The notes under the pieces were generated by a model. The model did not search any database. It was given only the letters and a program-made list of their open reading frames with translations, and had not been told where the DNA came from. Both the position numbers and the translations under genes were made by a program. A stretch of 64,000 bases of DNA, from assembly GCA_046735335.1 (NCBI GenBank), contig JBKPTE010000018.1, positions 4,000-67,999 on the forward strand, written 5' to 3'. The stretch comes from Acidobacteriota bacterium (GTDB taxonomy: Bacteria > Acidobacteriota > Vicinamibacteria > Vicinamibacterales > 2-12-FULL-66-21). The first letter of the stretch is position 1, and the number at the start of each line of letters is the position of its first letter. Shown here one piece after another: positions 10,345 to 54,592 of the stretch.

Positions 10345-10349
10345 GATCG

Positions 10350-10447
10350 AATCCCTAATCGCTAATCCTCAATCCTCAATCAACAATCCGCAATCCTCAA
10401 TCCGGACCCCGGATCCCGGATCGCGGATCCCGAATCCCGGACTCCGA
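10350..10447. repeat. degenerate heptamer tandem array (AATCCTC grading to ATCCCGG)
   Basis: about 14 consecutive 7-mers; overlaps 3' end of CDS 10380-11540. Confidence 0.85.
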
Positions 10448-12619: not shown

Positions 12620-13753
12620 TCAGGTTCTCTCCGAAAGGGCCGCCCTAGGGTCGTGGCGCGGCCCTGCCAGGGCCGCGATCTCCTCGTACACACCAGCGTA
12701 CGCCGACGCCATGCGCTCGACGGTGAACCCCTTCGAGCGCTCGTGGGCACGCGCGGCCAGGTCCCTGCGAAGGGCGGCATCGTCGATCAATTCGTCGATC
12801 GCGCGAACCAGCGCGTCTCCGTCGTCCGGGTGGACGAACGCGGCGGCGCCGTCCCAGTTCTCGCGCAGGCTGGCTATGTCGCCGAGCACGAGCGCGCAGC
12901 CCGCGGACGCCGCTTCGAGGACGGACAGGCCGAACGGCTCGTATCGCGCCGGCAGCACGTAAATTGCCGCACGAGCGAACCACTCGTTCATCTCTCCTGC
13001 GGAGAGGCGTCCCAGATACCGGACGGCGTTGCTCGATCGACACTCGGCGCCACCGCTGTCGCCAGCGACATACACCGGCCAGCGCAATCGCGGCGCGGCC
13101 CGGCAAAGCGCGTCGATGTTCTTGGCCTGGTCCCAAATCCGGCCTGCACTGAAGATGAATTCGCGGCTGCGACTTCCGCGGCTGGAACTTCCGCCTTCAG
13201 GCGGAAGAGACGCGGCCCTCCCATTCGGAATCACTCTGCCGTTCGGCACCGCGCCATACTCCTGCTGCAGGGCATCGAGCATCGCGCGCGTCGGCGCGAC
13301 GACGATCGCCGCTCCGGCGAGGCCATCGCGCACGCGCTCGCGATACGTGTGCCACGAGGATGGCGCGGCGCCTCCATGAACACCGCGCCACCAGGACGCA
13401 ACGCACGAATGAGCCGCGACGACGACCGGCGCACGCCATGGCAGCATGCCGTGGCAGTATCCGTTCAAGTGCACGACGTCGGGGCGCCACTCGTTTTCGA
13501 GAGCCAGCAGCCACCCGGCCGCCGCGTCGACGTCGGGCCACGGATCGTCCATCCATTCGAGCGCGAAGTCCCCTTCGCGCACGTCAATCCCTCGCCGGGC
13601 GGCCTCGCCGTGCTGGTCAGCGGACAGCCGCGGCCCCATCGTCGCAATCGTGACGGTGATGCCGCGGACGCGGAGTCCGCAGGCGAGATCGAGCGCATAC
13701 GTCCACACGCCTCCGACACCGTCGGCGGTCATGAGGACGCGACCGACGCACAT
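12620..13753 (-). CDS. GT4-family glycosyltransferase
   Basis: MTADGVGGVWTY, AGRIWDQAKN, YEPFGLSVLEAA. Confidence 0.9.
   Translation of the reverse strand: MCVGRVLMTADGVGGVWTYALDLACGLRVRGITVTIATMGPRLSADQHGEAARRGIDVREGDFALEWMDDPWPDVDAAAGWLLALENEWRPDVVHLNGYCHGMLPWRAPVVVAAHSCVASWWRGVHGGAAPSSWHTYRERVRDGLAGAAIVVAPTRAMLDALQQEYGAVPNGRVIPNGRAASLPPEGGSSSRGSRSREFIFSAGRIWDQAKNIDALCRAAPRLRWPVYVAGDSGGAECRSSNAVRYLGRLSAGEMNEWFARAAIYVLPARYEPFGLSVLEAASAGCALVLGDIASLRENWDGAAAFVHPDDGDALVRAIDELIDDAALRRDLAARAHERSKGFTVERMASAYAGVYEEIAALAGPRHDPRAALSERT
13188..13207. repeat. palindromic repeat inside the GT4 inter-domain linker
   Basis: CTTCCGCCT-TC-AGGCGGAAG perfect 9-bp stem within low-complexity peptide SLPPEGGSSSRGSRS. 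Confidence 0.6.
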
Positions 13754-15045
13754 CAATGCAGCTCCAGTTCCGACAGCGGCCGCGGCCGGGCGTCCTGGAT
13801 GTCGCTGAACTCTTCGAAGCGCGAGAGGTAGTGCTCCATGGCGCGCTCCCACGCGTTGTCGTCAGGCGCGCCCCACCGGCGCGTGTAGTCGGGCGAGCCC
13901 GGATACGGGAACATCGGCACCGGCTTGTTCGCCCACACACCGAACCCCTGCAGGTGCTCCCGCCAGGCTTCGACATCCGCGGGATCGTCGCTGCCCGACT
14001 CCAGCAGGTTCGCCTGCACGAACGGCACGCGGCCGCGGGCGTAGACGAGCCGTTCGGCAAGCTGCTCCGTCGTCAGGCGACTGCCCTTGTCGAGCAGATT
14101 GCGTCCTTCGACGGTGATGCTCTCGACGCCGGCTTCGATCGACACGCAACCTGCCCGGCCGAGGAGATCGATCATCGCGTGGTTCCAGAGGTCGATGCGC
14201 GTCTGCACGCCGAACACGAAGGGCCGATCGACGAATGCCTCGAGCAGCTCCCGATTGGGCAGGAAGATTTCGTCGATGAAGTACACGTAGCCGACGCCCA
14301 GCGCGAGCAGCGCGTCCAGCTCTTCGAGGATCGTTGCCACGGGACGCTTCCGGTAGTCGTTCCGGAAGTTGTCCTTCGCGCAGAACGAGCAGTGGTACGG
14401 ACACCCGCGCGAGACTTCCATCTCCGCACCAGGACTGTCCGGCTCTCGATCGAACCGATGGTGATGGTGGCGGTGGCGTGCGACGTCTTCACGCGTCCAT
14501 CGGAGCGCCGGCAGTGATGCCATGTCGACGGCATGGGGCGTGCCCTGCACCCGCAGGCCGCCATGGACGACATACGCAAGCGACTCGATGCGCTCCCATG
14601 CCGCGCGAGGAGACGCCAGCTTCGGCAGGATGTCCTCACACTCGCCGAGGACGGCGACGTCGGCGTCCAGCTTGCGAAGCGCCGCGCCTGGCGTCGTCGA
14701 TGCGTGCGGCCCGACGACGACGGTCAGCGGGCGCCGCGACAGCTTCGATCGAATGGCGCGGAGGGTGCGCTGCGGAATCCTCAGCTCCGGCGGCGCACAC
14801 CGCCAGAACAGGTAACTCGGCGCGGTCGTGACGACGAGCACGTCCGGCGCGAACCGGGCGATGTCCGCCGCAAGGCGATCCTCGCCGAGCGCATGCAACT
14901 GGCCGTCGGCGACGAGCACGTCGTGGCCTTCGGCTTCGAGCAGTGCGCGCGAATAGCCGTACTCGAGCGGCAGGTGCGGCTCGCGGCACCCGAAATAGAT
15001 GCTGCCGTCGAACTGCCAGTTCGGGTTCACGAGCGCGAATCTCAT
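13753..15045 (-). CDS. B12-binding radical SAM protein, TIGR04295 (rhizo-twelve)-like
   Basis: IYFGCREPHLPLE, TTAPSYLFWRC, HRHHHHRF, CPYHCSFC (CxxxCxxC), WANKPVPMFPYPGS. Confidence 0.9.
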   Translation of the reverse strand: MRFALVNPNWQFDGSIYFGCREPHLPLEYGYSRALLEAEGHDVLVADGQLHALGEDRLAADIARFAPDVLVVTTAPSYLFWRCAPPELRIPQRTLRAIRSKLSRRPLTVVVGPHASTTPGAALRKLDADVAVLGECEDILPKLASPRAAWERIESLAYVVHGGLRVQGTPHAVDMASLPALRWTREDVARHRHHHHRFDREPDSPGAEMEVSRGCPYHCSFCAKDNFRNDYRKRPVATILEELDALLALGVGYVYFIDEIFLPNRELLEAFVDRPFVFGVQTRIDLWNHAMIDLLGRAGCVSIEAGVESITVEGRNLLDKGSRLTTEQLAERLVYARGRVPFVQANLLESGSDDPADVEAWREHLQGFGVWANKPVPMFPYPGSPDYTRRWGAPDDNAWERAMEHYLSRFEEFSDIQDARPRPLSELELH

Positions 15046-16130
15046 GACGCGACCCTGCCCGCGGCCGCTATACGCGGTTCGACGACGTCGCTGGCGACGA
15101 GCCAGGAGAGCAGCCGCTCGACACCTTGTCTGACGGTCACGCGAGGCGCCCACCCCGTGAGGCGCTCGAACTTGGACGTGCTCGACACGTAGTACCGCTG
15201 ATCTGCCGGCCGCCACGGCTCGATCGCGAACGTCGGGCGCTCGCCGGTGAGATCCGCGATGAGATCCATCAGCTCGACGAGGCTGATCGTGTTCGACGGA
15301 CCGCCGCCGATGTTGAACGCGTCGCCCGCCGTATCTTCGATCCGTTCGTGCGCGAGCAGCATAGCGTCCACGAGATCCTCGACGAAGAGGACGTCACGCA
15401 CCTGCAGGCCGTCGCCGTACAGCGTCAGCGGGCGGCGGCGGAGCGCCTGAATGAGGAAGTGCGCCACCCAGCCCTGGTCTTCGGTCCCGAACTGGTGCGG
15501 TCCGTAGATGCAGCTCATTCGGAAGACGGTGGCCGGAACGCCGAACGTGCGCGCGTAGTCGAGCACGTACTGCTCCGCCGCGCCCTTCGAACAGCCGTAC
15601 GGACTGTGGAAATCGAGCGGACGCGCTTCGCTTATTCCGCCAAGCACGAGCCGCTCCTCTTCCGGCTCGTAGCGCGAGCCCCGGCGGCGCAGGCGCACGT
15701 CGTCGAGATCGCCGTAGACCTTGTTCGTCGACGTGAACAGCAAGGTCGGCGGCGCGTCGGCCGCGCGAATTGCTTCGAGGAGGTTCAGCGTGCCGCGCGC
15801 GTTGACCTCGAAGTCGAGGAACGGGTCCGTCAGGCTGGTCGTGACGGCCACTTGTGCCGCGAAATGAAATACCTGGTCGACGCCGCGAACCGCGCGCCGG
15901 AGCGCCGCTTCATCGCGGACGTCGCCGCGGACGAACTCGACGCGCTCACCATGCCGCGCCTGGATCCAGCGCAGGTTCTGCTCGACCCCCGCGCGCGACA
16001 GGTTGTCGAACAGCCGCACGCGCCGTCCCTTGCGCAGCAGGCGATCGGCGACGTTGGTCGCCACGAAGCCGGCGCCCCCGGTGATGAGCGACGTGCCGGT
16101 AGAGGCCGGAACACGAATGGGGCGGGTCAT
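15042..16130 (-). CDS. NAD-dependent NDP-sugar epimerase/dehydratase (CDP-paratose 2-epimerase-like)
   Basis: TGGAGFVA, AAQVAVTTS, STNKVYG, YGCSK, EDQGWVAHF. Confidence 0.92.
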   Translation of the reverse strand: MTRPIRVPASTGTSLITGGAGFVATNVADRLLRKGRRVRLFDNLSRAGVEQNLRWIQARHGERVEFVRGDVRDEAALRRAVRGVDQVFHFAAQVAVTTSLTDPFLDFEVNARGTLNLLEAIRAADAPPTLLFTSTNKVYGDLDDVRLRRRGSRYEPEEERLVLGGISEARPLDFHSPYGCSKGAAEQYVLDYARTFGVPATVFRMSCIYGPHQFGTEDQGWVAHFLIQALRRRPLTLYGDGLQVRDVLFVEDLVDAMLLAHERIEDTAGDAFNIGGGPSNTISLVELMDLIADLTGERPTFAIEPWRPADQRYYVSSTSKFERLTGWAPRVTVRQGVERLLSWLVASDVVEPRIAAAGRVAS

Positions 16131-17236
16131 ACCGTGAGCCCCCGCGCGGCCAGCTCCTGGCTGGCTTCGTCGACGCGATCCTCGGCCGCCTGATTTTGCA
16201 GCCACTCGGCCAGCTCCACGAGCCCGTCTTCGAGCATCACCTTCGGGTCGTAGCCCAGCACCTCGCGTGCCTCGGAGATCTCCGCAAAGCAATGACGGAT
16301 GTCCCCGACGCGATACTTGCCGCATATCTCAGGCGCGGCGCGCTTCCCGAGAATCCCCGCCAGCATGTCGGCCACCTGGCGCACGGTGTAGGACTGGCCG
16401 CTGCCGACGTTCAGCGCGCGTCCATCGGCGCTCGGCGACTCCAGCGCGAGACGGCACGCCTGCGCGATGTCGTACACGCTGACGAAGTCGCGGCGCTGCT
16501 GGCCGTCTTCGAAGATGAGCGGCGCGTTGCCGTTCATCAGGCGCGACGCGAAGATCGCGAGGACGCCGGTGTACGGGTTCGAGAGCGCCTGGCGCGTTCC
16601 GAACACGTTGAAGAACCGCAGCGCGACCGTGGGGATGCGATACGCGCGCCCGAGCATCAGGCACATGCGCTCCTGGTCGAACTTCGAGAGCGCGTACACG
16701 GACGACAGCGACGGCGATTTCGACTCCGGCGTCGCGACAGGCGTCAGCGCTCCCCCCGTCTCGTCGTACAGCTCCCATTCGCCGCGGCGCAGCTGCTCGA
16801 GCGGACGCTCACGCACTTCGCGGCTCGTGCCGTCGGCGGCCTGATACAACCCCTCGCCGTAGAGGCTCATGCTCGACGCGACAATCAACCGCTGGACGGG
16901 GCGCTTCACCAGCGCCTGGAGGAGCACCGCGGTACCGAGGTTGTTCACCGACGTGTAGTGTTCGATCTCGTACATGCTCTGGCCGACACCGACCGCGGCG
17001 GCGAGATGAAACACGGCGTCAATGCCTTCGAGCGCGCGGCGCACGGCGGCGGCATCGCGCACGTCGCCGCGCTGCAGCTCGACGTCGGCGTTGAGATAAC
17101 GTGGGCGCGCGGCATCGGCGCCGTGCACCTGCGGATCGAGACTGTCGAGCGCGCGAACGCGATGGCCGCGCTGCAGGAGTTCGTCCGCGAGGTGCGATCC
17201 GATGAAGCCCGCGCCGCCCGTTATCAGAATTTTCAT
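16127..17236 (-). CDS. NAD-dependent NDP-sugar epimerase/dehydratase
   Basis: TGGAGFIGSH, VGVGQSMY, YALSK, NPYTGV. Confidence 0.92.
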   Translation of the reverse strand: MKILITGGAGFIGSHLADELLQRGHRVRALDSLDPQVHGADAARPRYLNADVELQRGDVRDAAAVRRALEGIDAVFHLAAAVGVGQSMYEIEHYTSVNNLGTAVLLQALVKRPVQRLIVASSMSLYGEGLYQAADGTSREVRERPLEQLRRGEWELYDETGGALTPVATPESKSPSLSSVYALSKFDQERMCLMLGRAYRIPTVALRFFNVFGTRQALSNPYTGVLAIFASRLMNGNAPLIFEDGQQRRDFVSVYDIAQACRLALESPSADGRALNVGSGQSYTVRQVADMLAGILGKRAAPEICGKYRVGDIRHCFAEISEAREVLGYDPKVMLEDGLVELAEWLQNQAAEDRVDEASQELAARGLTV

Positions 17237-17309
17237 GAACCCTCGTCCTTTCGCGCCGGCCAACGGTGGTGTCCGGCTTGCTTACGGGAATGAACGTCGG
17301 AAGGTAAGT

Positions 17310-18536: not shown

Positions 18537-18552
18537 TGGTGGTTGGTTTGCA
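18537..18552 (+). promoter_or_regulatory. sigma54-like promoter of the xox-cox operon
   Basis: TGG-TGGTTGGTTT-GCA; would favour the ATG at 18567 as true start. Confidence 0.4.
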
Positions 18553-20423
18553 TGACCCCATCCGCGATGCGGACGTCCCTGCGTGTCGCGCTGGCTGTCG
18601 GTGTGATTGCAGCAGCCTCTGTGACCGGTAGTTGTCAGAAGCAGACGCTCGACACCTCGCGGCCCGGATCCGCGCGGGCCCTCAACGGCAAGCTCAGCGA
18701 GCCCGATCTCCTCAAGGCCCAGGCTGACGATGGGCAGTGGGTGATGCCCGCGAAGAACTACGCGTCCACCCGATTCAGCGGTCTCGAGGAGATCAATACC
18801 GGCAACGTCCGCCAGATGGGTGTCGCGTGGACCTTCTCGACGGGCATGGTCGCCGGCCACGAAGCCGCCCCCCTCGTCGTCGGCGACACGATGTATCTCG
18901 TGACGCCGTTCCCCAACATTGTTTACGCGTTCGATCTGACGAAGCCCGGCGCGCCGCTTCGATGGCAGTACGACCCGAAGCCGCTCGGCGCGTCGAAGGG
19001 CGTGGCGTGCTGCGACGTGGTCAGCCGCGGCGTCGCGTACTTCAACGGCAGCGTGTTCCTCAACACGCTCGACGGACGAACGATCGCGATCGACGCGCAG
19101 ACGGGTCAGCCCAAGTGGATCACGCCCCTTGCGGACATCAACAAGGGGGAGACCATCACGATGGCGCCGCTCGTCGTCAAGGGCAAGGTCCTCGTCGGCA
19201 ACAGCGGGGGGGAGTTCGGTGTCCGGGGATGGCTGACCGCGCTCGACGCCGACTCGGGGAAGGTCGCGTGGCGCGCATACAGCACAGGTCCCGACAAGGA
19301 CGTCCTGATTGGACCGTCCTTCAAGCCGCACTATGACCAGTACCGCGGAAAGGATCTGGGGCTTTCGACCTGGCCCGGCGAAGCGTGGCGTATCGGCGGC
19401 GGCACCGTGTGGGGGTGGATCAGCTTCGACCCGGATCTCAATCTCATCTACTACGGCACGGCGAACCCCGGGCCGTGGAATGCCGATCAGCGCCCCGGAG
19501 ACAACCTGTGGACGGCCGGCATGTTCGCGCGCGATCCCGATACCGGCGAGGCTCGATGGTTCTATCAAACGAGCCCGCACGATCTGTTCGATCACGACGG
19601 CGTCAACGAGGTGATCCTGGCGGATCTGCAGATGGGCGGTCAGACTCGGAAAGTGCTGATGCGCGCGGATCGCAACGGGCTCTTCTACGTCATCGATCGC
19701 ACGACCGGTGAAGTGCTCTCGGCGACGCCGTACGGCTACGTGAACTCGAATCGCGGCGTCGACATGAAGACCGGCAAGCTGATTCCTGTTCCAGAAAAGG
19801 CCGTCAAGCAAGGCGTCGTCACGCGCGACATCTGCCCGGCCGCGCCCGGCATGAAGGACTGGCAGCCGATGTCGTTCTCCCCGCGGACGGGTTACGTCTA
19901 CATCCCGCATCAGAACCTGTGCATGGACTCGGAAGGCATGTCCGCCAGCTACATTGCGGGCACGCCCTACGTCGGTGCGAGCGTGGTGTACAAGGCCGGG
20001 CCGGGCGGAAATCGCGGAGAAATGTCGGCGTGGGATCCCGTTGCAGCCAAGCCGGTATGGGCCGTCAAAGAGAATTTTCCCGTCTGGAGTGGATCACTCG
20101 CCACCGCGGGGGACGTTGTCTTCTACGGGACGATGGATGGATGGTTCAAGGCGCTCAACGCGAAGACGGGCGATCTGTTGTGGCAGTTCAAGGTGGGCTC
20201 CGGCGTCATCGGTCAGCCCGTCGCGTACAAAGGCCCTGACGGCCACGAGTACATCGCCGTGCTCGCCGGCGTCGGGGGATGGCCGGGCGCGATCGTCACT
20301 GCCGATCTCGACGTGCGCGATGCCACGGCCGCCAACGGCTGGGGAGGCGCGCTCGGCGATCTGAAGTCCGCGACGACTCGCGGCGGCATCCTGTACGTGT
20401 TCTCCATCGGAGGGACGCACTGA
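18552..20423 (+). CDS. xoxF: PQQ-dependent methanol/alcohol dehydrogenase, lanthanide (XoxF) type; start 18552 or 18567
   Basis: ACCDVV vicinal disulfide, GGEFGVRG, GTANPGPWN, D-H-D-G motif with the extra Ln-binding Asp; no mxaI; followed by J and cytochrome c genes. Confidence 0.85.
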   Translation: MTPSAMRTSLRVALAVGVIAAASVTGSCQKQTLDTSRPGSARALNGKLSEPDLLKAQADDGQWVMPAKNYASTRFSGLEEINTGNVRQMGVAWTFSTGMVAGHEAAPLVVGDTMYLVTPFPNIVYAFDLTKPGAPLRWQYDPKPLGASKGVACCDVVSRGVAYFNGSVFLNTLDGRTIAIDAQTGQPKWITPLADINKGETITMAPLVVKGKVLVGNSGGEFGVRGWLTALDADSGKVAWRAYSTGPDKDVLIGPSFKPHYDQYRGKDLGLSTWPGEAWRIGGGTVWGWISFDPDLNLIYYGTANPGPWNADQRPGDNLWTAGMFARDPDTGEARWFYQTSPHDLFDHDGVNEVILADLQMGGQTRKVLMRADRNGLFYVIDRTTGEVLSATPYGYVNSNRGVDMKTGKLIPVPEKAVKQGVVTRDICPAAPGMKDWQPMSFSPRTGYVYIPHQNLCMDSEGMSASYIAGTPYVGASVVYKAGPGGNRGEMSAWDPVAAKPVWAVKENFPVWSGSLATAGDVVFYGTMDGWFKALNAKTGDLLWQFKVGSGVIGQPVAYKGPDGHEYIAVLAGVGGWPGAIVTADLDVRDATAANGWGGALGDLKSATTRGGILYVFSIGGTH

Positions 20424-21244
20424 TGCTGCGCGGTGCCGCGTGGGCCGTGCTCGTCGCTCTCGGCGTCACCGCCTGCGGCGGGGCCGCACCCGCGCCCGCA
20501 TTCCGCGTCTGCGCCGACCCAAACAACCTGCCCTACTCCAATCGCGACGGCCAGGGCTTCGAGAACCGGATCGCACAGCTTCTCGCAGACGACAGCGGGG
20601 GAACCGTCGAGTACACCTGGTGGGCGCAGCGGCGCGGATTCCTTCGGAACACGCTCGCCGCCGATTCGTGCGACATCGTCATCGGCATGCCCACGTCCGC
20701 CGAGCGCGTCTTGACGACGCGTCCGTACTATCGATCGAGCTACGTCTTCGTCGACCGGCGCGAGCGCGGGCTGCAGCTCGCCTCGCTCGACGATCCGCGC
20801 CTCCGCCGCCTGAAGATCGGCGTGCAGATGATCGGCGACGACTTCACGAACAGTCCTCCCGCGCACGCGCTCTCGAATCGCGGGCTCGTGAACAACGTCG
20901 TCGGGTTTCCGGTGTACGGCGACTACTCGCAGCCGGCGCCGCTCGCCGGGATCGTGAGCGCGGTCGATCGAGGCGATATCGATGCCGCGATCGTCTGGGG
21001 CCCGCCGGCAGGGTATTTCGCAAAGTCGAGCCACAACCCGCTCGAGGTGACGCCCGTGTCGCCGCACGCCGACGCGCCGTCGCTCCCCTTCGTGTTCGAC
21101 ATCTCCATGGCCGTCCGCCCGGACGATCGCGCGCGCCGCGATCGGCTCGACGAGTTCATCGTCCGGCGTCGCGCCGACATCGACTCCATCCTGGACGCTT
21201 ACGGCGTTCCTCGGGTCGATGCGCGACAGGAGACAGCGCAGTGA
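20423..21244 (+). CDS. xoxJ: XoxJ/MxaJ-like periplasmic binding protein
   Basis: RVCADPNNLPYSN...GFEN, WWAQRRGF, TRPYYRSSYVF, WGPPAGYF. Confidence 0.85.
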   Translation: MLRGAAWAVLVALGVTACGGAAPAPAFRVCADPNNLPYSNRDGQGFENRIAQLLADDSGGTVEYTWWAQRRGFLRNTLAADSCDIVIGMPTSAERVLTTRPYYRSSYVFVDRRERGLQLASLDDPRLRRLKIGVQMIGDDFTNSPPAHALSNRGLVNNVVGFPVYGDYSQPAPLAGIVSAVDRGDIDAAIVWGPPAGYFAKSSHNPLEVTPVSPHADAPSLPFVFDISMAVRPDDRARRDRLDEFIVRRRADIDSILDAYGVPRVDARQETAQ

Positions 21245-21771
21245 AGCGAATCGTCGTATGCGTGGCGTTTGCGATCGCTGCGACAGCGTGCGAACGCGAA
21301 GCGCGCCGCTATCACGAGCTGCCTGCCGCGGCGAACCGGGAGACTGCCGTGCGCGTCACGTCGCTTCAGCCCGGATCGCCGGAGCAGCAGGCCGAGGTGA
21401 AGAGCCCCTATCAAGGGAACGCGTGGGGCATGGGCGAAGGGAAACGCCTGTATTCGCAGTTCAACTGCGCCGGCTGTCATGGCCTGAACGGCGGCGGCGC
21501 GATCGGTCCGGCGCTGATGGACGACAAGTGGATCTACGGCAGCAGGCCGGACCAGATCTACGCAACGATCTCGCAGGGCCGGCCGGACGGGATGCCGGCG
21601 TTCGGCGGACACATTCCGGCCCAGCAGATCTGGCAGCTCGTCGCGTACGTCGAATCGATGGGCGGCCTGGTGAATCCGAAGAATGCGCCGGGCAGGAACG
21701 ACGATCAGAGCGCAGCCCTCTCCGAGAACCGTCAGGCGCCGCAGAACCCGGTCCAGACGGGGCACCGCTGA
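21241..21771 (+). CDS. c-type cytochrome, XoxG-like electron acceptor
   Basis: NCAGCH heme motif, GPALMDDKWIYG, GMPAF; GTG overlaps xoxJ stop. Confidence 0.85.
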   Translation: MKRIVVCVAFAIAATACEREARRYHELPAAANRETAVRVTSLQPGSPEQQAEVKSPYQGNAWGMGEGKRLYSQFNCAGCHGLNGGGAIGPALMDDKWIYGSRPDQIYATISQGRPDGMPAFGGHIPAQQIWQLVAYVESMGGLVNPKNAPGRNDDQSAALSENRQAPQNPVQTGHR

Positions 21772-22709
21772 TGCCGCACATCCAGTCGGTCCTCTCTCCG
21801 TCGGGCATTCAGGCGGCGCGCATCAACCATGTGTGGTGGGTGATGCTGATCGTCTGCACGGTCGTGTGGGTGCTCGTCGCGGGGGCGACGCTGCTCGCGG
21901 TCGCTCGCGGGCGAAAGGCCGCGTCCACGGCAACCGACGGACAACTGACGTTCATCGTGGGCATCGCCGCCGCTGTCACGATCGTCGTCTTGATCGGCCT
22001 GCTGTTCGACACAATCGTCATCGGCCGCTCGCTCGAAACGATTCGTACGGCCGACGCGCTCCGGATCCAGGTCAAGGGGTACCAGTGGTGGTGGGACGTC
22101 CAGTACGAGAATCCTGTTGCCGGCCTTCGCGTCACGACCGCAAACGAACTGCACATCCCTGTCGGCCGGCCGGTCGCGATCGACCTGCTCTCGTCCGACG
22201 TGATCCACAGCTTCTGGGTGCCGAACCTGCAGGGAAAGATCGATCTGGTGCCGGGGCGCAAGAACGAGCTGTGGCTTCAGGCCGACAAGCCCGGAATCTA
22301 TCGCGGCCAGTGCGCTGAATACTGCGGGGCTCAGCACGCGCACATGGCGCTCCTGGTGACCGCGGAATCCGAAGAACAGTTTCAGCGCTGGCTCACCGCG
22401 AATCGCGCGAGCGCTCCCCCCCCGCAGACGCCGGAACAGGTCCGCGGGCGCGACGTCGTCGAGCGCGGGCCCTGTGCGATGTGCCACGCCGTGCAAGGCA
22501 CATCCGCCGGGGCGCATATGGGGCCGGATCTCACGCACGTCGCATCGCGCAGCACGCTCGGCGCGGGAACGGTGCCGAACACGCGCGGATACCTCGCCGG
22601 CTGGATCATGGATCCGCAGCACATCAAGCCGGGCAATCACATGCCGCCCACGGGCCTCGGCGACGAGGAACTGCAGGCCGTCCTCGCGTATCTGGAGACG
22701 TTGAAATGA
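21771..22709 (+). CDS. coxB: cytochrome c oxidase subunit II with fused cytochrome c (caa3-like)
   Basis: GYQWWW, DVIHSF, CAEYCGAQHAHM CuA motif, C-terminal CAMCH. Confidence 0.93.
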   Translation: MPHIQSVLSPSGIQAARINHVWWVMLIVCTVVWVLVAGATLLAVARGRKAASTATDGQLTFIVGIAAAVTIVVLIGLLFDTIVIGRSLETIRTADALRIQVKGYQWWWDVQYENPVAGLRVTTANELHIPVGRPVAIDLLSSDVIHSFWVPNLQGKIDLVPGRKNELWLQADKPGIYRGQCAEYCGAQHAHMALLVTAESEEQFQRWLTANRASAPPPQTPEQVRGRDVVERGPCAMCHAVQGTSAGAHMGPDLTHVASRSTLGAGTVPNTRGYLAGWIMDPQHIKPGNHMPPTGLGDEELQAVLAYLETLK

Positions 22710-24715
22710 GCGTACGTCCGGAGGCGTACGACAAGTCGCATCTGAGCGGCCGGCCGGTTCTGGTCGAAGACGACCCGCGCCTTCAGGCGGATGCGCTCGC
22801 GCGCGAGCACGCGGAGCTGTCGCGCACGTGGGCGTGCGCGCGCGGGTTCGTCGGCTGGCTCTCGGAAGTCGATCACAAGGCGATTGGCCGCCGCTTCCTC
22901 GTGACGGCGTTCGTCTGGTTCGTGCTCGGCGGCTTCCTCGCCGCCGCAATGCGGATCCAGCTCTCGCGGCCCGACAACACCTTTCTCGGCCCCGATCTCT
23001 ACAACCAGATCTTCACCATGCACGGCACGACGATGATGTTCCTGTTCGCCGTGCCGGTGATGCTGGCGATGGGGATCTATCTGGTGCCGCTGATGGTCGG
23101 CGCCAGGGCGATCGCGCTGCCACGGCTGGTCGCCTACGGGTACTGGATGTTCCTGTTTGGCGGGATCTTTCTCTATACGATGTTCGCCATCAACACCGGC
23201 CCCGACAACGGCTGGTTCAGCTACGTGCCGCTCGCCGGTCCCGAGTTCGGCTACGGCAAGCGGGCGGACACCTGGGCGCAGCTCATCACGTTCAGCGAGC
23301 TGTCCTCGCTCGTGATTGCGACCGCGCTCATCTGCACCATCTTCAAGCTGCGCACGCCGGGCATGTCGCTCAACCGGATGCCGCTCTTCGTGTGGTCGAT
23401 GCTCGTCGTGTCGATCATGATCCTCTTCGCGATGCCCGCGGTGATGGTCTCAAGCACGTCCCTCATCCTGGATCGGCTCATCGGCACGCATTTCTTCAAT
23501 CAGGCCGAAGGCGGCGACCCGATCCTCTGGCAGCACCTCTTCTGGTTCTTCGGGCACCCGGAGGTCTACATCATCTTCCTCCCGGCGCTCGGGATGATGT
23601 CGCACATCATCTCGACGTTCACCGGACGGCCGGTGTTCGGGTACCTCGCGCTGGTGCTGTCGCTCATCGCGACGGCGTTCATCGGGTTCGGCGTCTGGGT
23701 CCATCACATGTTCGCGACGGGGCTGCCGCAGCTCGGCACCAGCTTCTTCACGGCCGCGAGCATCATGATCGTGGTGCCGACCGGCATCCAGACGTTCTGC
23801 TGGATCGCGACCGTCTGGACCGCGCGGCGCCTCCGCCTCACCACGCCGATGCTGTACGTCCTGTCGTGGTTCTTCATCTTCATCATCGGCGGGCTCACCG
23901 GCGTGATGCTCGCCTCGGTTCCGCTCGATCGCCAGGTTCACGACACCTTCTTCGTCGTCGCACACTTTCATTACGTCCTCATCGGAGGATCGATCTTTCC
24001 CCTCCTCGGCGCCGTTCACTTCTGGTTCCCGAAATTCACGGGACGGATGCTCAGCGAAGCGCTCGGGAAGACCGCGTTCTGGCTGCTTTTCGTGGGATTC
24101 AACCTGACCTTCTTCCCGATGCACCTGCTCGGCCTCGAAGGCATGCCGCGGCGGGTCTACACATACCCGACGGCCATGGGTTGGGGCGGCATGAACCTGC
24201 TCGCGAGCATCGGGGCCGCGGTCATGGCGGTCTCGCTCATCCTCTATTTGATCAACGTGATCGTCAGCCTGCGCGCCGGCGCGCTGGCCGGCGACAATCC
24301 GTGGGCGTCCGGAACGCTGGAATGGGGTACGACATCTCCCCCACCGCCGTTCAATTTCGCGCCGCAGCCGGCCGTCGCGGGGCACGAGCCGCTGTGGTCC
24401 CCCGAGCTCGCGCCGCCGCCGGTGATTGGCCTCGCGACGGACAAGCGCGAGGTGCTCGTCACCTATCTGCTCGACGCCGAACCCGATCATCGCTACGAGA
24501 TGCCCGGCCCGTCCATCTGGCCGCTGCTCGCCGCGATCGCGACCACCGTGCTTTTCATCTGGTCGATCTTCTCCGCGTGGGGCGCCGTTTGGGGCGCCAT
24601 TCCGGTGTTCGTCACGCTCGTCGGGTGGTTCTGGCCGCGAGACGGCATGAAGCCCCGCGAGATGGAGCGCGTCGCCGGCGCCGGCCGGCTGACGCCCACG
24701 GAGATCACGTCGTGA
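22706..24715 (+). CDS. coxA: heme-copper oxidase subunit I
   Basis: TMHG, GHPEVY, WVHHM, VAHFHY, GMPRR. Confidence 0.95.
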   Translation: MSVRPEAYDKSHLSGRPVLVEDDPRLQADALAREHAELSRTWACARGFVGWLSEVDHKAIGRRFLVTAFVWFVLGGFLAAAMRIQLSRPDNTFLGPDLYNQIFTMHGTTMMFLFAVPVMLAMGIYLVPLMVGARAIALPRLVAYGYWMFLFGGIFLYTMFAINTGPDNGWFSYVPLAGPEFGYGKRADTWAQLITFSELSSLVIATALICTIFKLRTPGMSLNRMPLFVWSMLVVSIMILFAMPAVMVSSTSLILDRLIGTHFFNQAEGGDPILWQHLFWFFGHPEVYIIFLPALGMMSHIISTFTGRPVFGYLALVLSLIATAFIGFGVWVHHMFATGLPQLGTSFFTAASIMIVVPTGIQTFCWIATVWTARRLRLTTPMLYVLSWFFIFIIGGLTGVMLASVPLDRQVHDTFFVVAHFHYVLIGGSIFPLLGAVHFWFPKFTGRMLSEALGKTAFWLLFVGFNLTFFPMHLLGLEGMPRRVYTYPTAMGWGGMNLLASIGAAVMAVSLILYLINVIVSLRAGALAGDNPWASGTLEWGTTSPPPPFNFAPQPAVAGHEPLWSPELAPPPVIGLATDKREVLVTYLLDAEPDHRYEMPGPSIWPLLAAIATTVLFIWSIFSAWGAVWGAIPVFVTLVGWFWPRDGMKPREMERVAGAGRLTPTEITS

Positions 24716-25311
24716 CCCGCGCCGCGCTCGACGTCTCGCAGCTTCCCGAATACGCCTTCGGCCAGCGCAGCCTGATGTGGTGGGCGACCATGTGCCTGAT
24801 CGCAATCGAGGGCACGGCGTTCGGGCTGCTGATCGTGACGTACTTGTATCTGAAGGGGCGCGTGCCGCACTGGCCTCCCGGCCTCGGCAATCCGGCCTTG
24901 CGCTGGGGAACGCTGAATCTGATCGTGCTGCTCGCGTCCGCGGTGCCCAACGAACTCACGAAGAAGGCCGCGGAGCGGCTCGACCTTCGAGGCGTCCAGC
25001 TCTGGATCGCCATCTCCATCGCGTTCGCGGTTGCGTTCAACGTCATTCGTTTCGTCGAGTTCGGCGCGTTGAACACCAGATGGGACACCAACGCCTACGG
25101 CTCCATCGTCTGGTTCCTTCTCGGCACTCACACGGTCCACGTCCTGACGGATCTGCTCGATACGTTCGTGCTCGCCGCCGTGATGTTCGTGGGACCGGTG
25201 GACGAGCACCGGTTCGTCGACGTCAGCGAGAACTCCATGTACTGGTACTTCGTCGTGCTGACGTGGATCCCGATCTATGCCGTCATCTACCTTGCGCCGC
25301 GATTCGTCTGA
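24712..25311 (+). CDS. coxC: heme-copper oxidase subunit III
   Basis: AIEGTAF, YGSIVWFLLGTHTVHV, YWYFV. Confidence 0.88.
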   Translation: MTRAALDVSQLPEYAFGQRSLMWWATMCLIAIEGTAFGLLIVTYLYLKGRVPHWPPGLGNPALRWGTLNLIVLLASAVPNELTKKAAERLDLRGVQLWIAISIAFAVAFNVIRFVEFGALNTRWDTNAYGSIVWFLLGTHTVHVLTDLLDTFVLAAVMFVGPVDEHRFVDVSENSMYWYFVVLTWIPIYAVIYLAPRFV

Positions 25312-25675
25312 GTGGTCGCACGCCGGGAAGCTGACGCCGCTCTGGATCGGCGTCCTCGCGGGTCCGCTGATGTGGGCGGTGCTGCTCGAGACGAACTACG
25401 TGCTCTCGTACGTGGCGTGCGAGCAGCGGCACAAATGGATGCTCCACCTCGCCACCGCGATCGCGATTCTCGTCGTCGCGGCCGCCGGCTTGCTCGCGTG
25501 GCGTGCCGCGCCGCCGCTGGGCGGCGGCACGGAGGAACCCACCGCCGACAGGGACCGAACCCGGCTGCTTCGAGCACGATTCATGGGGCTCGGCGCCGTG
25601 CTGCTCTCGGCATGGTTCATCCTCGTCATGCTGTCGACCGAGATCGTCATTTCGATCCTCGAGGTGTGCGCGTGA
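25277..25675 (+). CDS. small membrane protein in the oxidase operon
   Basis: three hydrophobic segments; overlaps both neighbours. Confidence 0.7.
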   Translation: MPSSTLRRDSSEWSHAGKLTPLWIGVLAGPLMWAVLLETNYVLSYVACEQRHKWMLHLATAIAILVVAAAGLLAWRAAPPLGGGTEEPTADRDRTRLLRARFMGLGAVLLSAWFILVMLSTEIVISILEVCA

Positions 25676-26610
25676 GCGCGCGCCGGCCCGCGGCAACGAT
25701 CGCCGGAATGCTGCTGTTGACGGCACCGGTTCTGGCGCACGACGGTCACGAGCTTGCCGCAGAAGCAATCCGCCAGTGGACGTTCGATCCGCTCGTTATC
25801 GTTCCGCTCATCGTGACCGCAGCGTTGTATGCCGTTGGCGTCGTGCGGTTGCGGCAGCATCCCGGCGCCCGCCGGGGCCTGCCCTCGTGGCGGATCGCGT
25901 CGTTTGCCGCCGGGTGGCTCACGATCGTTCTGGCACTCGTGTCCCCCGTCGCGTGGCTGTCGGAGATTCTTTTCTCCGTTCACATGACGCAGCACACGCT
26001 GCTCATGCTGGTCGCGGCACCGCTGATGATGTTCGGGCACCCGCTCTTCGTGTGGCTCTGGGCGTTCGACGCGCACGCGCGCGAGCAGATCTGCGCGGCC
26101 GTGCTGCGCCGTTCGGTGCGAAGCGCATGGCATGCGGTTACCGGCCCGCTCAGCGTGTTCCTGATCAACGCGGTCGCGTTGTGGATCTGGCACCTTCCCG
26201 TGCTGTACCAGACAGCGCTCCGCCACACGGGCGTCCACGCCCTCGAGCATCTCTCGTTCCTGCTCGCCGCGTCACTCTTCTGGTGGGGCATGGTGCACGG
26301 CCGCTACGGACGGATCGGGTACGGGCTCGGCGTGTTGTACGTGTTCCTGACCGGCGTGCACAGCAGCGCCCTGGGCGCGCTGCTCACGATATCCCCGTCG
26401 GTGTGGTACGGCGACTACGCCCGGCAGGCTGCACTCTGGCGGATCGACGCGCTTGCCGATCAGCAGCTTGCGGGGCTGCTGATGTGGATTCCGGCTGGCG
26501 TCATCTTCATGATCTTCGGGCTGGCGCTGTTCGCAGCATGGCTCGGCGAATCGGAGCGCCGCGTCATGCTGGGGCGCACGGAAGCGGTTCGGCGGCATCA
26601 TGCGCGCTGA
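25672..26610 (+). CDS. ctaG: caa3-type CtaG cytochrome c oxidase assembly factor
   Basis: FSVHMTQH, WIWHLP, HALEH, DQQLAGLLMWIP. Confidence 0.88.
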   Translation: MSARRPAATIAGMLLLTAPVLAHDGHELAAEAIRQWTFDPLVIVPLIVTAALYAVGVVRLRQHPGARRGLPSWRIASFAAGWLTIVLALVSPVAWLSEILFSVHMTQHTLLMLVAAPLMMFGHPLFVWLWAFDAHAREQICAAVLRRSVRSAWHAVTGPLSVFLINAVALWIWHLPVLYQTALRHTGVHALEHLSFLLAASLFWWGMVHGRYGRIGYGLGVLYVFLTGVHSSALGALLTISPSVWYGDYARQAALWRIDALADQQLAGLLMWIPAGVIFMIFGLALFAAWLGESERRVMLGRTEAVRRHHAR

Positions 26611-26980
26611 CGCGGCCGCTTTGATCGCCGTGTTCACCGCGCTTGCCGCCTGCGCCGCGCCGCGCGAGGACATTCGGACGTCGGCGATTACACTGACCGG
26701 CGGGGATCCCGATCGGGGCAAGGCAGCGATCACCAGATACGGCTGCCCGAGCTGCCACAACATTCCTGGCGTCCCCGGCGCGACTGCGACCGTCGGGCCG
26801 CCGCTCGACAACATCGCCGTCCGATCGGTGCTCGGGGGCCACCTCACGAACACGCCGGACAACATGGAGCGCTGGATTCAGAAGCCGCAGGAGGTGGACC
26901 CGAAGAACGTCATGCCGGATATGAGTGTGACGGACCAGGATGCGAAGGATATTGTGGCGTTTCTGTATACCTTGCGGTGA
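26600..26980 (+). CDS. c-type cytochrome (lipoprotein)
   Basis: LAAC lipobox, GCPSCH, GPPL, MPD. Confidence 0.88.
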   Translation: MRADAAALIAVFTALAACAAPREDIRTSAITLTGGDPDRGKAAITRYGCPSCHNIPGVPGATATVGPPLDNIAVRSVLGGHLTNTPDNMERWIQKPQEVDPKNVMPDMSVTDQDAKDIVAFLYTLR

Positions 26981-27619: not shown

Positions 27620-27765
27620 GGCCGCAGACTCACGCGGACTCAGTTGGCCGCAGACTCACGCGGACTCACGCGGATTCAGTTGGCCCCAGACTCAGGCCGC
27701 GGACGACGCGGACTCACGCGGAATCATTCAGGCCGCGGACGACGCGGGACGCGGACTAACGCAGA
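27620..27765. repeat. degenerate 9-10-mer array (CGCGGACTCA / CGCAGACTCA)
   Basis: about a dozen related units with higher-order duplication. Confidence 0.8.
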
Positions 27766-28718
27766 ATCTCCTTGCCGAGGCCGCGCGGCGACCAGCCCTC
27801 GACGATCGTCTTTGCCATGCGTGCGATGAGCAGCTCGGCTTCGTTCTCGGGCGTCCAGCTCTGGTCCTCGTTGTCGTAGCTGAACACCGAGATGACGATG
27901 GGGCCGTCCTTCGTGTAGACGATCCCCACGTCGTTGCGGACGCGATCGAGGCTGCCCGTCTTGTTCGCGATGTGGCTCGCGACCTCGGTCGTGTCCGCGT
28001 CCTCGAGGTAGTGCGGAATGCCGTTGCGCCAGAACTGGTGCTCCATGATGTCGACCATGCGCGCGCACAACGCCGTGTCGCCGAGATCGCAGCGCTCGAT
28101 CGCTTCGAGGATGCCGGCCATCTCGCGCGCGGTCGTGCGGCCGATCCCGAACGGCTTCAGTTCGGGGCGCTGATCGCCCTGCTCCGAGTGGCCGATCGGG
28201 CGGATGCTCGTAGTCAGCGGAAAGCCCAGCGAACGCAGACGGGCGTTGACGCGCTCGCGGCCGACGTGCGCCAGCACCAGGTTCGTGGCCGTGTTGTCGC
28301 TCTGCGTGATCATCAGGACGATCGCCGTCTCGAAATTGACGGTCGCGGGCGTGTGATACAGCAGCAGCACACCGGAGCCCGAAACCTGGTCCTCCTTCCG
28401 TAGTGTCAGGTCGTCGTTGAACGACACTCGTCCTTCCTTCACCTGATACATCGCCTCGAGCATGATGGCCACCTTGATGACCGAGGCCGTGTTCACCGGC
28501 CGATCCGGGTCGATCGCGACGGTCTGCCCGGTGCGGAGCGCCCTGGCGTAGAGCGACACCTTCCCGTGATGGTGCGCCGCCAGATGGTCCATCAGGTGCT
28601 GCATCGTCTCGTCGCGGCGCTCGTCGGACCGCGTGCCGGCCTGCTGCGCCCGCGCGATGCCCGGTGCGACGAGCCCGATCGTGAGGATTGCAGCGGAGAG
28701 CGCTCGAACGATGGCCAT
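27756..28718 (-). CDS. class A beta-lactamase-like serine hydrolase, secreted
   Basis: signal peptide, SVIK, SDN, KTG motifs. Confidence 0.88.
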   Translation of the reverse strand: MAIVRALSAAILTIGLVAPGIARAQQAGTRSDERRDETMQHLMDHLAAHHHGKVSLYARALRTGQTVAIDPDRPVNTASVIKVAIMLEAMYQVKEGRVSFNDDLTLRKEDQVSGSGVLLLYHTPATVNFETAIVLMITQSDNTATNLVLAHVGRERVNARLRSLGFPLTTSIRPIGHSEQGDQRPELKPFGIGRTTAREMAGILEAIERCDLGDTALCARMVDIMEHQFWRNGIPHYLEDADTTEVASHIANKTGSLDRVRNDVGIVYTKDGPIVISVFSYDNEDQSWTPENEAELLIARMAKTIVEGWSPRGLGKEILR

Positions 28719-28729
28719 CGCGTACTCCG

Positions 28730-30127
28730 TCAGTGCGCCGCGGCGACCGCTTCGCCGGCCACCGCCTTGACGATGTCGCCCAGCACCTGTTTGGCGTCGC
28801 CGAACGCCATGAGCGTGCGATCCAGGTAATACAGCTCGTTTTCGATCCCCGCGAATCCGGGATTCATCGAGCGCTTGATGGCGATGACGCTTCTCGCCTT
28901 GTCCGCGTCGATGATCGGCATGCCGAAGATCGGGCTCGACTTGTCGTGCCGCGCGGCGGGGTTCACGACGTCGTTGGCACCGACGACGAGCGCGACGTCG
29001 GTCTGCGCCATCTCGGGGTTGATGTCGTCCATCTCCGCCAGCGCTTCGTAGGGAATCTCAGCCTCGGCGAGCAGCACGTTCATGTGGCCGGGCATCCGGC
29101 CGGCAACGGGATGGATCGCGAAGCGCACGTCGATGCCGCGCTTCGTCAGCAGATCGTACAGCTCGTGCACCCGGTGCTGCGCCTGGGCGACGGCCATGCC
29201 GTAGCCCGGAATGATCACGACGCGGTCGGCGCTCAGCAGCAGATCCGCGACGTCCTGCGGCGTGGCGCTCTTGACGGTCTTCGCCTCCGCTGCCTGCTGC
29301 CCCGCCTGCACCTGGCCGAAGGCGCCGAACAGGACGTTCGTGAACGACCGGTTCATCGCGCGGCACATGATCACGGAGAGGATGAAGCCCGACGATCCGT
29401 CGAGCGCGCCGGCCGTAATCAGGAGCTTGTTCTGGAGCACGAAGCCCATCGCGACCGCCGAGAGCCCGGCATACGAATTCAGCAGCGAGATGACCGTCGG
29501 CATGTCCGCGCCGCCGATCGGGATTATGAGGAGCACCCCGAACACGAGTGAGAGCACGATGAGCACGGCGAACGCCTGCCAGTACTCCGTATGGATCGTC
29601 AGATAGACACCCGATGCTGCGGCAATCGCGAGCAGCAGCAGGTTGACGAAGTTCTGGTTGCGATACGTGATGGGCCGCGTCGGAATCACTTCCTGGAGCT
29701 TCCCCGCCGCCATGAGGGACCCGGTGAAGGTGAGGAACCCAAGGATGCACTCGAGCGCGATCGCGCCCGTCCTGAACGAAGTGAGGCCGCCCTGGTGCAT
29801 CCACAGGGAGTACTTCGCGACGCCGACCAGCCCCGCCGCGAGGCCGCCGAACGCGTGCGAGAGCGCGGTCCGCTGCGGCACGGCCGTCAGCGGCACCAGC
29901 GCGAGCGGAATGCCCGCAATCGTGCCGACGACGAAAGCGATGGCGATCCAGGAATAGCCGACGATTTCGGGCGCCATCAGCGTGCCGCCAATCGCGGCGG
30001 TCATGCCGATCACACCCGCGAGGACGCCGCGCCGCGCCGTTCGCGGGTGGTTCAGCCATCGCAGCGACAGGATGAACAGCGCTGCGGCGATGAGATACCA
30101 CAGCTCGATGAGATGGTAGGAGATCAC
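28730..30127 (-). CDS. pntB: NAD(P) transhydrogenase subunit beta
   Basis: IGGADMP, PGYGMAVAQ, HPVAGRMPGHMN, GANDVVNP. Confidence 0.96.
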   Translation of the reverse strand: MISYHLIELWYLIAAALFILSLRWLNHPRTARRGVLAGVIGMTAAIGGTLMAPEIVGYSWIAIAFVVGTIAGIPLALVPLTAVPQRTALSHAFGGLAAGLVGVAKYSLWMHQGGLTSFRTGAIALECILGFLTFTGSLMAAGKLQEVIPTRPITYRNQNFVNLLLLAIAAASGVYLTIHTEYWQAFAVLIVLSLVFGVLLIIPIGGADMPTVISLLNSYAGLSAVAMGFVLQNKLLITAGALDGSSGFILSVIMCRAMNRSFTNVLFGAFGQVQAGQQAAEAKTVKSATPQDVADLLLSADRVVIIPGYGMAVAQAQHRVHELYDLLTKRGIDVRFAIHPVAGRMPGHMNVLLAEAEIPYEALAEMDDINPEMAQTDVALVVGANDVVNPAARHDKSSPIFGMPIIDADKARSVIAIKRSMNPGFAGIENELYYLDRTLMAFGDAKQVLGDIVKAVAGEAVAAAH

Positions 30128-30420
30128 TTGCTGCGCTCCTTCTCACGGAACATCTTCAGCATCCGGTCCGTGAGGAGAAAGCCGCTGACGATGTTGGTCA
30201 TGGAAGCGGCGACGGCGACGGTGCCGAGCACCGTCGTGAACGTGGATTCCTGCTCGCCGGCGATGAGAATCGACCCGACCACCGCAATCGCCGAGATCGC
30301 GTTGGTCAGCGACATCAGCGGCGTGTGCAGCAGGCGGCTGACGTTCTGGATGACCTGAAATCCCACGAACGTCGCCAGCATGAACACGAACAGCATTGAC
30401 CAGAGATCGAGAGCGGGCAC
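30124..30420 (-). CDS. pntAB: NAD(P) transhydrogenase alpha subunit, membrane part (alpha2)
   Basis: LHTPLMSLTNAIS, NIVSGFLLTDRMLKMF. Confidence 0.93.
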   Translation of the reverse strand: MPALDLWSMLFVFMLATFVGFQVIQNVSRLLHTPLMSLTNAISAIAVVGSILIAGEQESTFTTVLGTVAVAASMTNIVSGFLLTDRMLKMFREKERSK

Positions 30421-50006: not shown

Positions 50007-50008
50007 GA

Positions 50009-51843: not shown

Positions 51844-51844
51844 G

Positions 51845-54558: not shown

Positions 54559-54592
54559 GCCGCCACTATACCGGGATCACGTCGGATCGCGA

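Follow-up and report, generated by a model that had tools for sequence, protein, structure and literature searches.

A conserved A-type oxidase subfamily lacking both canonical proton channel signatures, with a possible route of proton entry through subunit III

Oxidases of the A family are defined by two proton input channels, D and K, and single channel mutants cripple the model enzymes. How, then, could a member work when the key residues of both channels are missing? This question is raised by a cytochrome oxidase operon in a 64,000-nt stretch of contig JBKPTE010000018.1 of an Acidobacteriota bacterium (assembly GCA_046735335.1), referred to below as the window, where the genes for oxidase subunits II, I and III lie downstream of a xoxF-type dehydrogenase gene. 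A sequence-only reading of this DNA had proposed that subunit I keeps its metal ligands, lacks both channel signatures, and represents a divergent, xoxF-linked A-type subfamily with another proton supply, a non-pumping role as an electron sink or a different chemistry. The portions available of PMC7196763 and PMC7601700 report that single D132N or K362M mutants almost halt model enzymes, and those of PMC11214002 still call the coupling of input channels to pumping a long-standing question. The answer that we tentatively favour is a proton entrance that may have moved to subunit III.

All coordinates are positions within the window. Residue numbers of subunit I are identical to those of Escherichia coli CyoB up to residue 362, and the numbers of Rhodobacter sphaeroides (1M56; Rs) coincide with those of the window subunit I over residues 196-290. 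Subunit I scored 676 bits against TIGR02891 (CtaD; cut-off 670.75), and its best solved relatives are A1 oxidases (E ~1e-133, compared with ~1e-11 for ba3). Its structural model, with a predicted local distance difference test score (pLDDT) of 92.7, matched A-family oxidases in Foldseek, with 2YEV at the top. Retained are the six His metal ligands (H106, H284, H333, H334, H420 and H422) together with E286, Y288, S299, T359, D408, H412, R482 and R483, which agrees with the earlier statement that the six His, E286 and Y288 (HPEVY) and the Arg pair are intact. In the D path, N124I (Rs N121), D135A (Rs D132), N142V (Rs N139), S145G and N207A were found, with F64 in place of Y61, and in the K path the lysine is replaced by Q362. 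Subunit II has the CuA motif, and its second transmembrane helix (TM2) carries no equivalent of E89/E101, the Glu at the K-path entry. The three entrance substitutions, the Lys-to-Gln change at codon 23789-23791 and the missing entry Glu had all been named beforehand and all hold; N207A, an invariant new E198 and new acids in subunit III go beyond that list. Misalignment, which would have hidden canonical D, N and K residues, was rejected because the register is free of gaps against CyoB, mycobacterial CtaD and 1M56.

Are these substitutions private to one decaying gene? Among the close homologues, i.e., the best 120 of 7,996 scored (69-98% identity to the window subunit I, the closest named ones belonging to Vicinamibacterales), no variation was seen in the metal ligands, E286, Y288 or Q362, position 124 is I, V or M in all 120, and position 135 is D or E in only three. 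No Asp or Glu occurs in the lower D path (positions 120, 124, 135, 142, 145, 204 and 207) in 117/120, and conservation reaches 95% or more in 244 of the 516 core columns. Between the window gene and six relatives, the ratio of nonsynonymous to synonymous substitution rates (dN/dS; Nei-Gojobori) was 0.07-0.39 in 21/21 pairs, with dS probably underestimated because the G+C fraction at third codon positions is 0.91. Internal stops are absent from the 17 best matches. Thus, the relaxed selection that the sequence-only reading had considered as a sign of decay was not seen. As the residues of O2 chemistry are invariant and purifying selection operates, the active site is maintained, and such a site needs protons. 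The substitutions are judged to be neither chance nor private drift, and to mark a conserved subfamily.

How large is this subfamily, and what is its origin? In a GTDB sample consisting of the best 80 of 600 matches, 44 loci carry Q362 and 36 carry K362. E198 is present and N124 absent in all 44 Q362 loci, whereas all 36 K362 loci have N124, D135, N142 and N207 and none has E198. Counting those of the 80 loci in which TM2 is covered, the E89 motif of subunit II was found in 0/39 Q362 loci and 23/23 K362 loci. With the diagnostic columns removed, the Q362 proteins formed a single clade amid canonical A1 oxidases (support 100/100), and the D135-less forms made up one branch (97/93; 95/96 with a mixture model). 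A form with Trp at position 286, the W286 family, is sister to the E198 forms in the subunit I trees, which were built from subsets of 48 and 32 rows and rooted on an A2 paralogue or on actinobacterial A1; the tree for A1 descent was rooted on the A2 paralogue, with B and C outgroups left out. Q362 is found in 45 of 150 representatives taken at 50% identity, and 25 of the 29 Q362 proteins that cover position 198 have Glu there. The window protein belongs to a large A1-derived clade marked by Q362, usually by E198 in TM4, and by a polar lane between TM4 and TM5. The proposal of a divergent, conserved A-type subfamily with another proton supply gains from the support for this clade, from its conservation and dN/dS values, and from the candidate residues described next.

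The gains fall in subunits I and III. In TM4 of subunit I, Q192 (120/120), T195 (118/120) and E198 (120/120) are conserved in the close homologues, and S250 and T251 of TM5 are nearly invariant there. Either E254 in TM5 or Q192 in TM4 is present, never the two together, in 40/44 Q362 loci, 120/120 close homologues and 106/119 W286 homologues, compared with 2/36 K362 loci; this mutual exclusion suggests neighbouring positions that swap. T323 has also been gained (120/120 close homologues; 32/44 Q362 loci), and E300 of the K lane has been lost (present in 1/44 Q362 versus 36/36 K362 loci). According to the accessible text of PMC4256069, V194, I250, L246 and F108 of R. sphaeroides line the O2 cavity toward F282/E286. 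As S250 occupies the I250 column and E198 lies one turn (four residues) past V194, we infer that E198 faces this cavity.

Subunit III keeps its fold, the first 45 Foldseek ranks being oxidase subunit III chains. In solved subunits III, Gly and apolar residues occupy the helix-4 sites where the window protein has acids, and an Asp stands in the YWHFVD motif, from which the window protein has lost it. The acids at positions 147, 150, 170 and 173 are each present in 120/120 close homologues, where T26, E33, N80, T146 and N174 are likewise invariant. Among 32 D135-less loci (the window, 8 order relatives, 17 GTDB loci and 6 plasmid records), the four acids occur in 30, 32, 31 and 31, respectively; the corresponding counts are 0, 1, 3 and 0 of 14 D135-keeping Q362 loci, 0/2 in W286 loci, and 0, 0, 2 and 0 of 21 other loci. 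For position 150, Asp or Glu is present in 32/32 D135-less loci versus 1/37 of the remaining ones. Of the distant representatives, 35 contain a subunit III domain, and none of these has an acid at 147 or 150 (3 without coverage there). The acid-bearing subunits III formed a clade of their own (100/99) with those columns removed, and the loss of D135, the gain of Q192 and the subunit III acids all map to one branch. These residue losses and gains, their conservation, the purifying selection and the co-mapping are established. In the model, all four acid positions are within predicted helices. In 20 K362 relatives, columns 147-156 hold apolar residues, the first Arg or Lys stands at 157 in 15 of the 20, and natural fusions of subunits I and III were found; these features would place D147 and D150 in the cytoplasmic, positive-inside half of the membrane, with D170 and E173 probably near the cytoplasmic face.

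The clade constitutes a natural series, from enzymes that keep both K and D, through those that have lost K and rebuilt D with glutamates, to those that have lost D135 and gained the subunit III acids, and finally to those with an acid-free lower D path. One or more lower D-path acids remain in all 44 GTDB Q362 loci; the D135-keeping members mostly have an acid ladder, D135-E207-E120-E198, and N207E occurs naturally in 34/44. As the close homologues of the window protein have almost entirely lost such acids, the window group appears to be the end of a graded series of D-path loss. The subunit III acids are already present in rhizobial members in which E120/E207 persist, which suggests that the lower path was emptied after the new acids arose; such a later loss would be expected for a bypassed channel. 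The series is extended by the sister family, represented in the same genome by a second PQQ (pyrroloquinoline quinone)-dehydrogenase-linked oxidase (L002:6292-8187; G000:C63), which has Q362 and E286W with D135, N124, N142 and N207 intact. W286 and Q362 are present in 119/119 homologues of this family and D135 in 118/119, and T198, T247, E254, T295, T320, T323 and S356 are also conserved; it appears to be a distinct family with a D path capped at its top. As separate observations, P0245, P0255, P0267 and P0307 have H362 or I362 with E198, or Q362 with G198 and intact N124/N207, possibly representing early steps of the series. Members from Burkholderiales (L009-L011, L016, L035, L064 and L007) have Glu or Asp at position 204 as the sole lower D-path acid; G204D is presumably a blocking mutation in R. 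sphaeroides.

How might protons then reach the active site? With a confidence somewhat short of even, we favour an O2 reductase whose protons would travel through subunit III to E198 and E286, with pumping reduced. Cytoplasmic protons would enter at D170/E173/N174 of subunit III, move on through D150/T151, D147/T146 and H143/E33, and cross into the polar lane between TM4 and TM5 in subunit I (Q192, T195, S250 and T251), from which they would pass via E198 and E286 to the active site; the electrons would come from the neighbouring dehydrogenase and cytochromes. Because there would be a single input route, pumping would probably amount to less than four protons per O2, if it occurs at all. The sidedness and spatial closeness of the residues, the crossing between subunits, O2 as the substrate and the stoichiometry are what we infer in this account. 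Moving the entrance to subunit III would be the simplest account of all the gains. A little more tentative is the wider possibility that a widespread A1-derived subfamily, with both channels shut and uptake through subunit III, has a third channel architecture within the A family. We know of no studied enzyme in which subunit III is a proton conduit; its first helix, as we take it, packs on TM4/TM5 of subunit I. There are precedents for movable entrances: in the text available of PMC7196763, pumping is uncoupled by N139D and by N207D and is restored in D132N/N139D, and that of PMC8361435 describes alternative proton entries when subunit III is missing or via a QcrB loop, so that groups beyond subunit I can also serve as the entry. 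As the entry groups could be moved in the D132N/N139D and QcrB cases, we count these as favouring a relocated entrance.

Several points weigh against proton entry through subunit III. The E198 rule is not absolute, as the count among the 50%-identity representatives illustrates; P0243 is without D135 and without Q192; P0253 is without D135 and without the subunit III acids; and L015 carries only two of the four. Detection of subunit III was limited to 14/31 D135-keeping Q362 loci and 19/36 GTDB K362 loci. Independent contrasts between D135 loss and subunit III acids yielded one pair (sign test p = 1), and the coincidence of the two appears to be a single evolutionary event. The TM4/TM5 lane predates the loss of D135 and extends toward the periplasmic side. 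The weakest step of the proposed route is the crossing to E198, because the canonical subunit III Glu presumably points into its own helix bundle. Finally, four or five buried carboxylates, together with Asn, Thr and His, would also fit a cation site.

Such a site is the basis of the alternative that survives best, although we consider it unlikely: the subunit III acids would bind Ca, Mg, Mn or Na in a structural, regulatory or transported form, and protons would follow a lysine-free K-type lane (S299, T323, S352, T/S359, Q362 and Y288), as in B-family oxidases. A version in which the enzyme moves Na+ is highly improbable. The helix 4/5 hairpin would set D150 approximately level with E173/N174, forming a tight carboxylate cluster. 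Q362, T323, S352 and S299 are each present in 120/120 of the window family, and Q362 (119/119), T323 (118/119) and S352 (119/119) recur in the W286 family; since these lane residues are common to both families and W286 would cap the D path, they point to a common non-D route. B-family enzymes, according to the text available of PMC11214002, use a single K-type channel. However, the protonatable entry groups of such a lane are gone, as judged from E89 of subunit II and from E300, T323 is replaced by I or V in 12/44 Q362 loci, position 359 is variable (S/T/A/N), and a cation site does not explain why the acids arose on the branch that lost D135.

More doubtful is uptake from the periplasm, in which protons would descend the TM4/TM5 lane (K185/D188, Q192, T195, S250 and E198) to E286, and the enzyme would be a non-electrogenic electron and O2 sink for a periplasmic dehydrogenase, on which the proton gradient would exert no back-pressure. 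The lane's position in the periplasmic half and its presence throughout the Q362 clade are consistent with this, as is the accessory nature of the enzyme: the genome also holds an A2 oxidase with D135 and K362, and the 10 carrier genomes among 151 of the order all have at least two subunit I matches. cNOR provides a parallel, being described in the accessible part of PMC11214002 as having no cytoplasmic channels. Uptake from this side leaves the cytoplasmic-half acids of subunit III unaccounted for, though; moreover, the outer acid of the lane was lost on the window branch (E254 to I), and D135-keeping relatives hold the lane in addition to a full cytoplasmic ladder (D135, E207 and E120).

We regard as quite unlikely a different chemistry, most plausibly H2O2 reduction of the cytochrome c peroxidase kind, with a polarised O2 channel admitting a polar substrate. 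In R. sphaeroides, K362M abolishes the oxidase and not the peroxidase activity (PMC7601700, in the section citing Vygodina 1998); S250 and probably E198 make the wall of the O2 channel polar; and stress-type neighbours (hemerythrin, CsbD, Ku/LigD and DUF4142) are present at some loci. Against this, the invariant His-Tyr pair marks O2 rather than NO reductases, as stated in the text available of PMC11214002, lysine-free A-type oxidases occur in iron oxidisers, and a stress connection is not borne out by the promoter motif and regulon comparisons given below. Least credible is a decaying gene or inactive enzyme whose substitutions reflect drift, since its patchy presence (10/151 genomes of the order), often on plasmids, and the near-inactivation of model enzymes by equivalent single mutants are outweighed by the low dN/dS, the column conservation, the stop-free best matches and the recurrence of identical substitutions in several phyla.

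To which class does the enzyme belong? The six His and the TM6 Tyr (120/120), an XGHPEV motif with E286 and descent within A1 are all A1 features. At the D-channel positions of A1 (D135, N124, N142, N207 and Y61), however, it has A, I, V, A and F, and for the K channel both K362 and E89 of subunit II are missing, with T359, S299 and Y288 retained. As A1 descent is combined with the absence of both channel signatures, the enzyme is a variant of A-family oxidases rather than a canonical A1 member. Its FGHPEVY motif is not the YSHPXVY of A2. The NO reductases (cNOR, qNOR, eNOR, sNOR, bNOR, nNOR and gNOR), defined by an absent active-site Tyr in the text available of PMC11214002, do not fit either, with Y288 present in 120/120. 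The A1 caa3/aa3 enzymes (2YEV, mycobacterial CtaD, 1M56 and bo3) are similar in fold, six His, GHPEVY, Arg pair, CuA subunit II with fused cytochrome c and five-helix subunit III; the window enzyme differs in having no D135/N124/N142/N207, K362 or subunit II E89, and in adding E198, Q192, T195 and S250 as well as D147/D150/D170/E173/N174 of subunit III. B-family enzymes have no D channel and, like the window enzyme, carry a residue that is polar but neutral where the lysine would stand. Thermus thermophilus ba3, however, is far more distant in sequence, and the window enzyme, with no affinity to ba3, has both E286 and a subunit III and no entry Glu in subunit II.

Closer to the K-path loss are the K-channel-less A oxidases of iron oxidisers and other organisms (bioRxiv 2020.03.01.968255; PMC8239418), in which, in the parts of these sources available, K354/K362 and E78/E89 of subunit II are lost jointly, as here. 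Their lysine site is occupied by a residue that is apolar, small or aromatic, Supplementary Table 3 of K-channel variants in PMC8239418 containing no Gln there, and they retain the D channel, which a supplementary legend of that article describes as without significant change. The engineered N139D, N207D and D132N/N139D variants (PMC7196763, in the text available) shift acids along the D path, and relatives of the window enzyme carry a natural N207E; unlike these variants, the window enzyme has an acid-free lower path and new acids in another subunit. No account of the channels of this clade was found in the portions available of PMC6431628 or PMC11214002, or of the K-to-Q clade, E198 or the subunit III acids in full-text literature, a search that was not aimed at subunit III and did not extend to subscription papers or bioRxiv supplements.

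The layout of the operon, which is tightly packed, is already published. The window has the gene set of XoxF3 systems (Voutsinos 2024, PMC10875860) and of COX a-II (Degli Esposti 2014, PMC4013037), namely xoxF-xoxJ-xoxG, coxII-I-III, a small protein, ctaG and a cytochrome c, as far as the available text describes it; in that main text, 'proton' has no match in PMC10875860 and 'channel' none in PMC4013037. Unlike those operons, the Q362 oxidase clade occurs also without xoxF. The loss of channel residues is real and conserved, and the manner of proton supply decides how much energy is conserved by the abundant XoxF3 modules of soil. To our knowledge, metabolic annotation counts their oxidases as ordinary pumping ones. 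The clade would provide a natural test of proton uptake and pumping in such oxidases, and the D135-less form with subunit III acids is present in cultured, genetically tractable hosts: Sinorhizobium medicae WSM419, Rhizobium etli CFN42 (RHE_PB00063-66) and Mesorhizobium japonicum MAFF303099. According to the accessible part of PMC4274787, the R. etli operon is among those left untested there.

Table 1. Features of the oxidase operon in the window
Feature	Position	Strand	Basis or remark
XoxF-type PQQ alcohol dehydrogenase	18552..20423	+	TIGR03075, 644 bits; start codon inferred
XoxJ-like periplasmic binding protein	20423..21244	+	TIGR03871, 302 bits
XoxG-like cytochrome c	21241..21771	+	PF13442/PF00034
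Subunit II (caa3 type) with CuA site and cytochrome c fusion	21771..22709	+	TIGR02866, PF00116+PF00034
Subunit I	22706..24715	+	intact open reading frame, 669 aa; 12 core helices and two C-terminal helices
Further D-path positions L120, A207	23063 (L120), 23324 (A207)	+	alignment
Lost D-path entrance: I124 (23075), A135 (23108), V142 (23129)	23075..23131	+	alignment
Polar TM4 residues Q192, T195, E198	23279..23299	+	E198 codon 23297-23299; Gly in canonical enzymes
S250/T251 in TM5	23453..23458	+	S250 aligns with I250, R. sphaeroides O2-channel residue
HPEVY motif (H284, E286, Y288)	23555..23569	+	alignment
Q362 replacing K-path lysine	23789..23791	+	codon CAG; 120/120 close homologues
Subunit III, five helices	24712..25311	+	PF00510; model pLDDT 94.8
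Subunit III helix 4: canonical H140, H143, then new T146, D147 (25150), D150 (25159), T151	25129..25164	+	
Subunit III helix 5 start: new D170, E173, N174; canonical YWHFVD Asp lost	25219..25233	+	
Small hydrophobic protein encoded between coxIII and ctaG; two conserved Cys	25277..25675	+	start uncertain
Caa3_CtaG copper-delivery factor	25672..26610	+	PF09678, 200 bits
Second small cytochrome c	26600..26980	+	PF00034

The dehydrogenase has the extra Asp of lanthanide-type enzymes, its DHDGVN aligning with DYDGVN of 4MAE, the best PDB match (667 bits). How closely is the oxidase tied to it? A xoxF gene stands beside the oxidase gene in 6/6 acid-free relatives from the same order, whereas among the 44 GTDB Q362 loci, some of them truncated, xoxF (at least 45% identity) was found within at most 7 kb in just 5. 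The xoxF linkage proposed by the sequence-only reading is thus valid for the closest members; strict linkage of the whole clade was rejected. Other Q362 neighbours are FdhF/YdeP oxidoreductases or alternative complex III genes. Of 151 genomes of the order, 10 carry a copy with at least 64% identity, and each of these 10 has one or more additional subunit I matches; the enzyme appears to be an accessory oxidase that works with a variety of donors. The small two-Cys membrane protein was matched at 21 loci, all with Q362, and could be a clade-specific subunit IV; a small protein of the operon is mentioned in the available text of PMC10875860.

The genome encodes heme A synthase and three further subunits I besides the window copy. 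Apart from the W286 protein, there are the A2 paralogue (C147), which has D135, K362 and the motif YSHPAVY, and a protein at L004:15829-17541 (G000:C52) that has K362I but keeps E286 and the D entrance, and whose subunit II contains the entry-Glu motif. Alternative complex III genes (Fe-S subunit, NrfD and ActD) lie upstream of coxII at L036, L040, L052 and L080, which are D135-keeping Q362 loci. Alternative complex III pairing is usually described for A2 oxidases.

In S. medicae and in Bradyrhizobium sp. 195, genes of the operon are preceded upstream by EcfG-type GGAAC...CGTT motifs (L086:4808 and L133:6670, 11807 and 12671). General-stress (EcfG) control, a candidate prompted by the neighbours and by these two motif-bearing operons, was unsupported: GGAAC-N15-18-CGTT was found upstream in 2/51 Q362 versus 1/33 K362 loci (contig-end loci dropped, operon starts approximate), and the R. 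etli PB0005x/PB0006x tags are absent from six supplements of PMC3892343 on the EcfG regulon.

Judged from their translations, open reading frames upstream of the operon at 9598-17263 are glycosyltransferase-, NAD-epimerase-, nucleotidyltransferase- and radical-SAM-like, and the R. etli operon (L132:12772-17898) is likewise flanked by annotated glycosyltransferases and by a UDP-glucuronate decarboxylase. Downstream of the window operon, on the minus strand, NAD(P) transhydrogenase-like subunits (28730-30420, also judged from translations) and a class A beta-lactamase-fold protein (27756-28718; PF13354, far under any named beta-lactamase family cut-off) were noted. Further along, at 50001-56000, an AT skew of approximately +0.26 is sustained over 6 kb.

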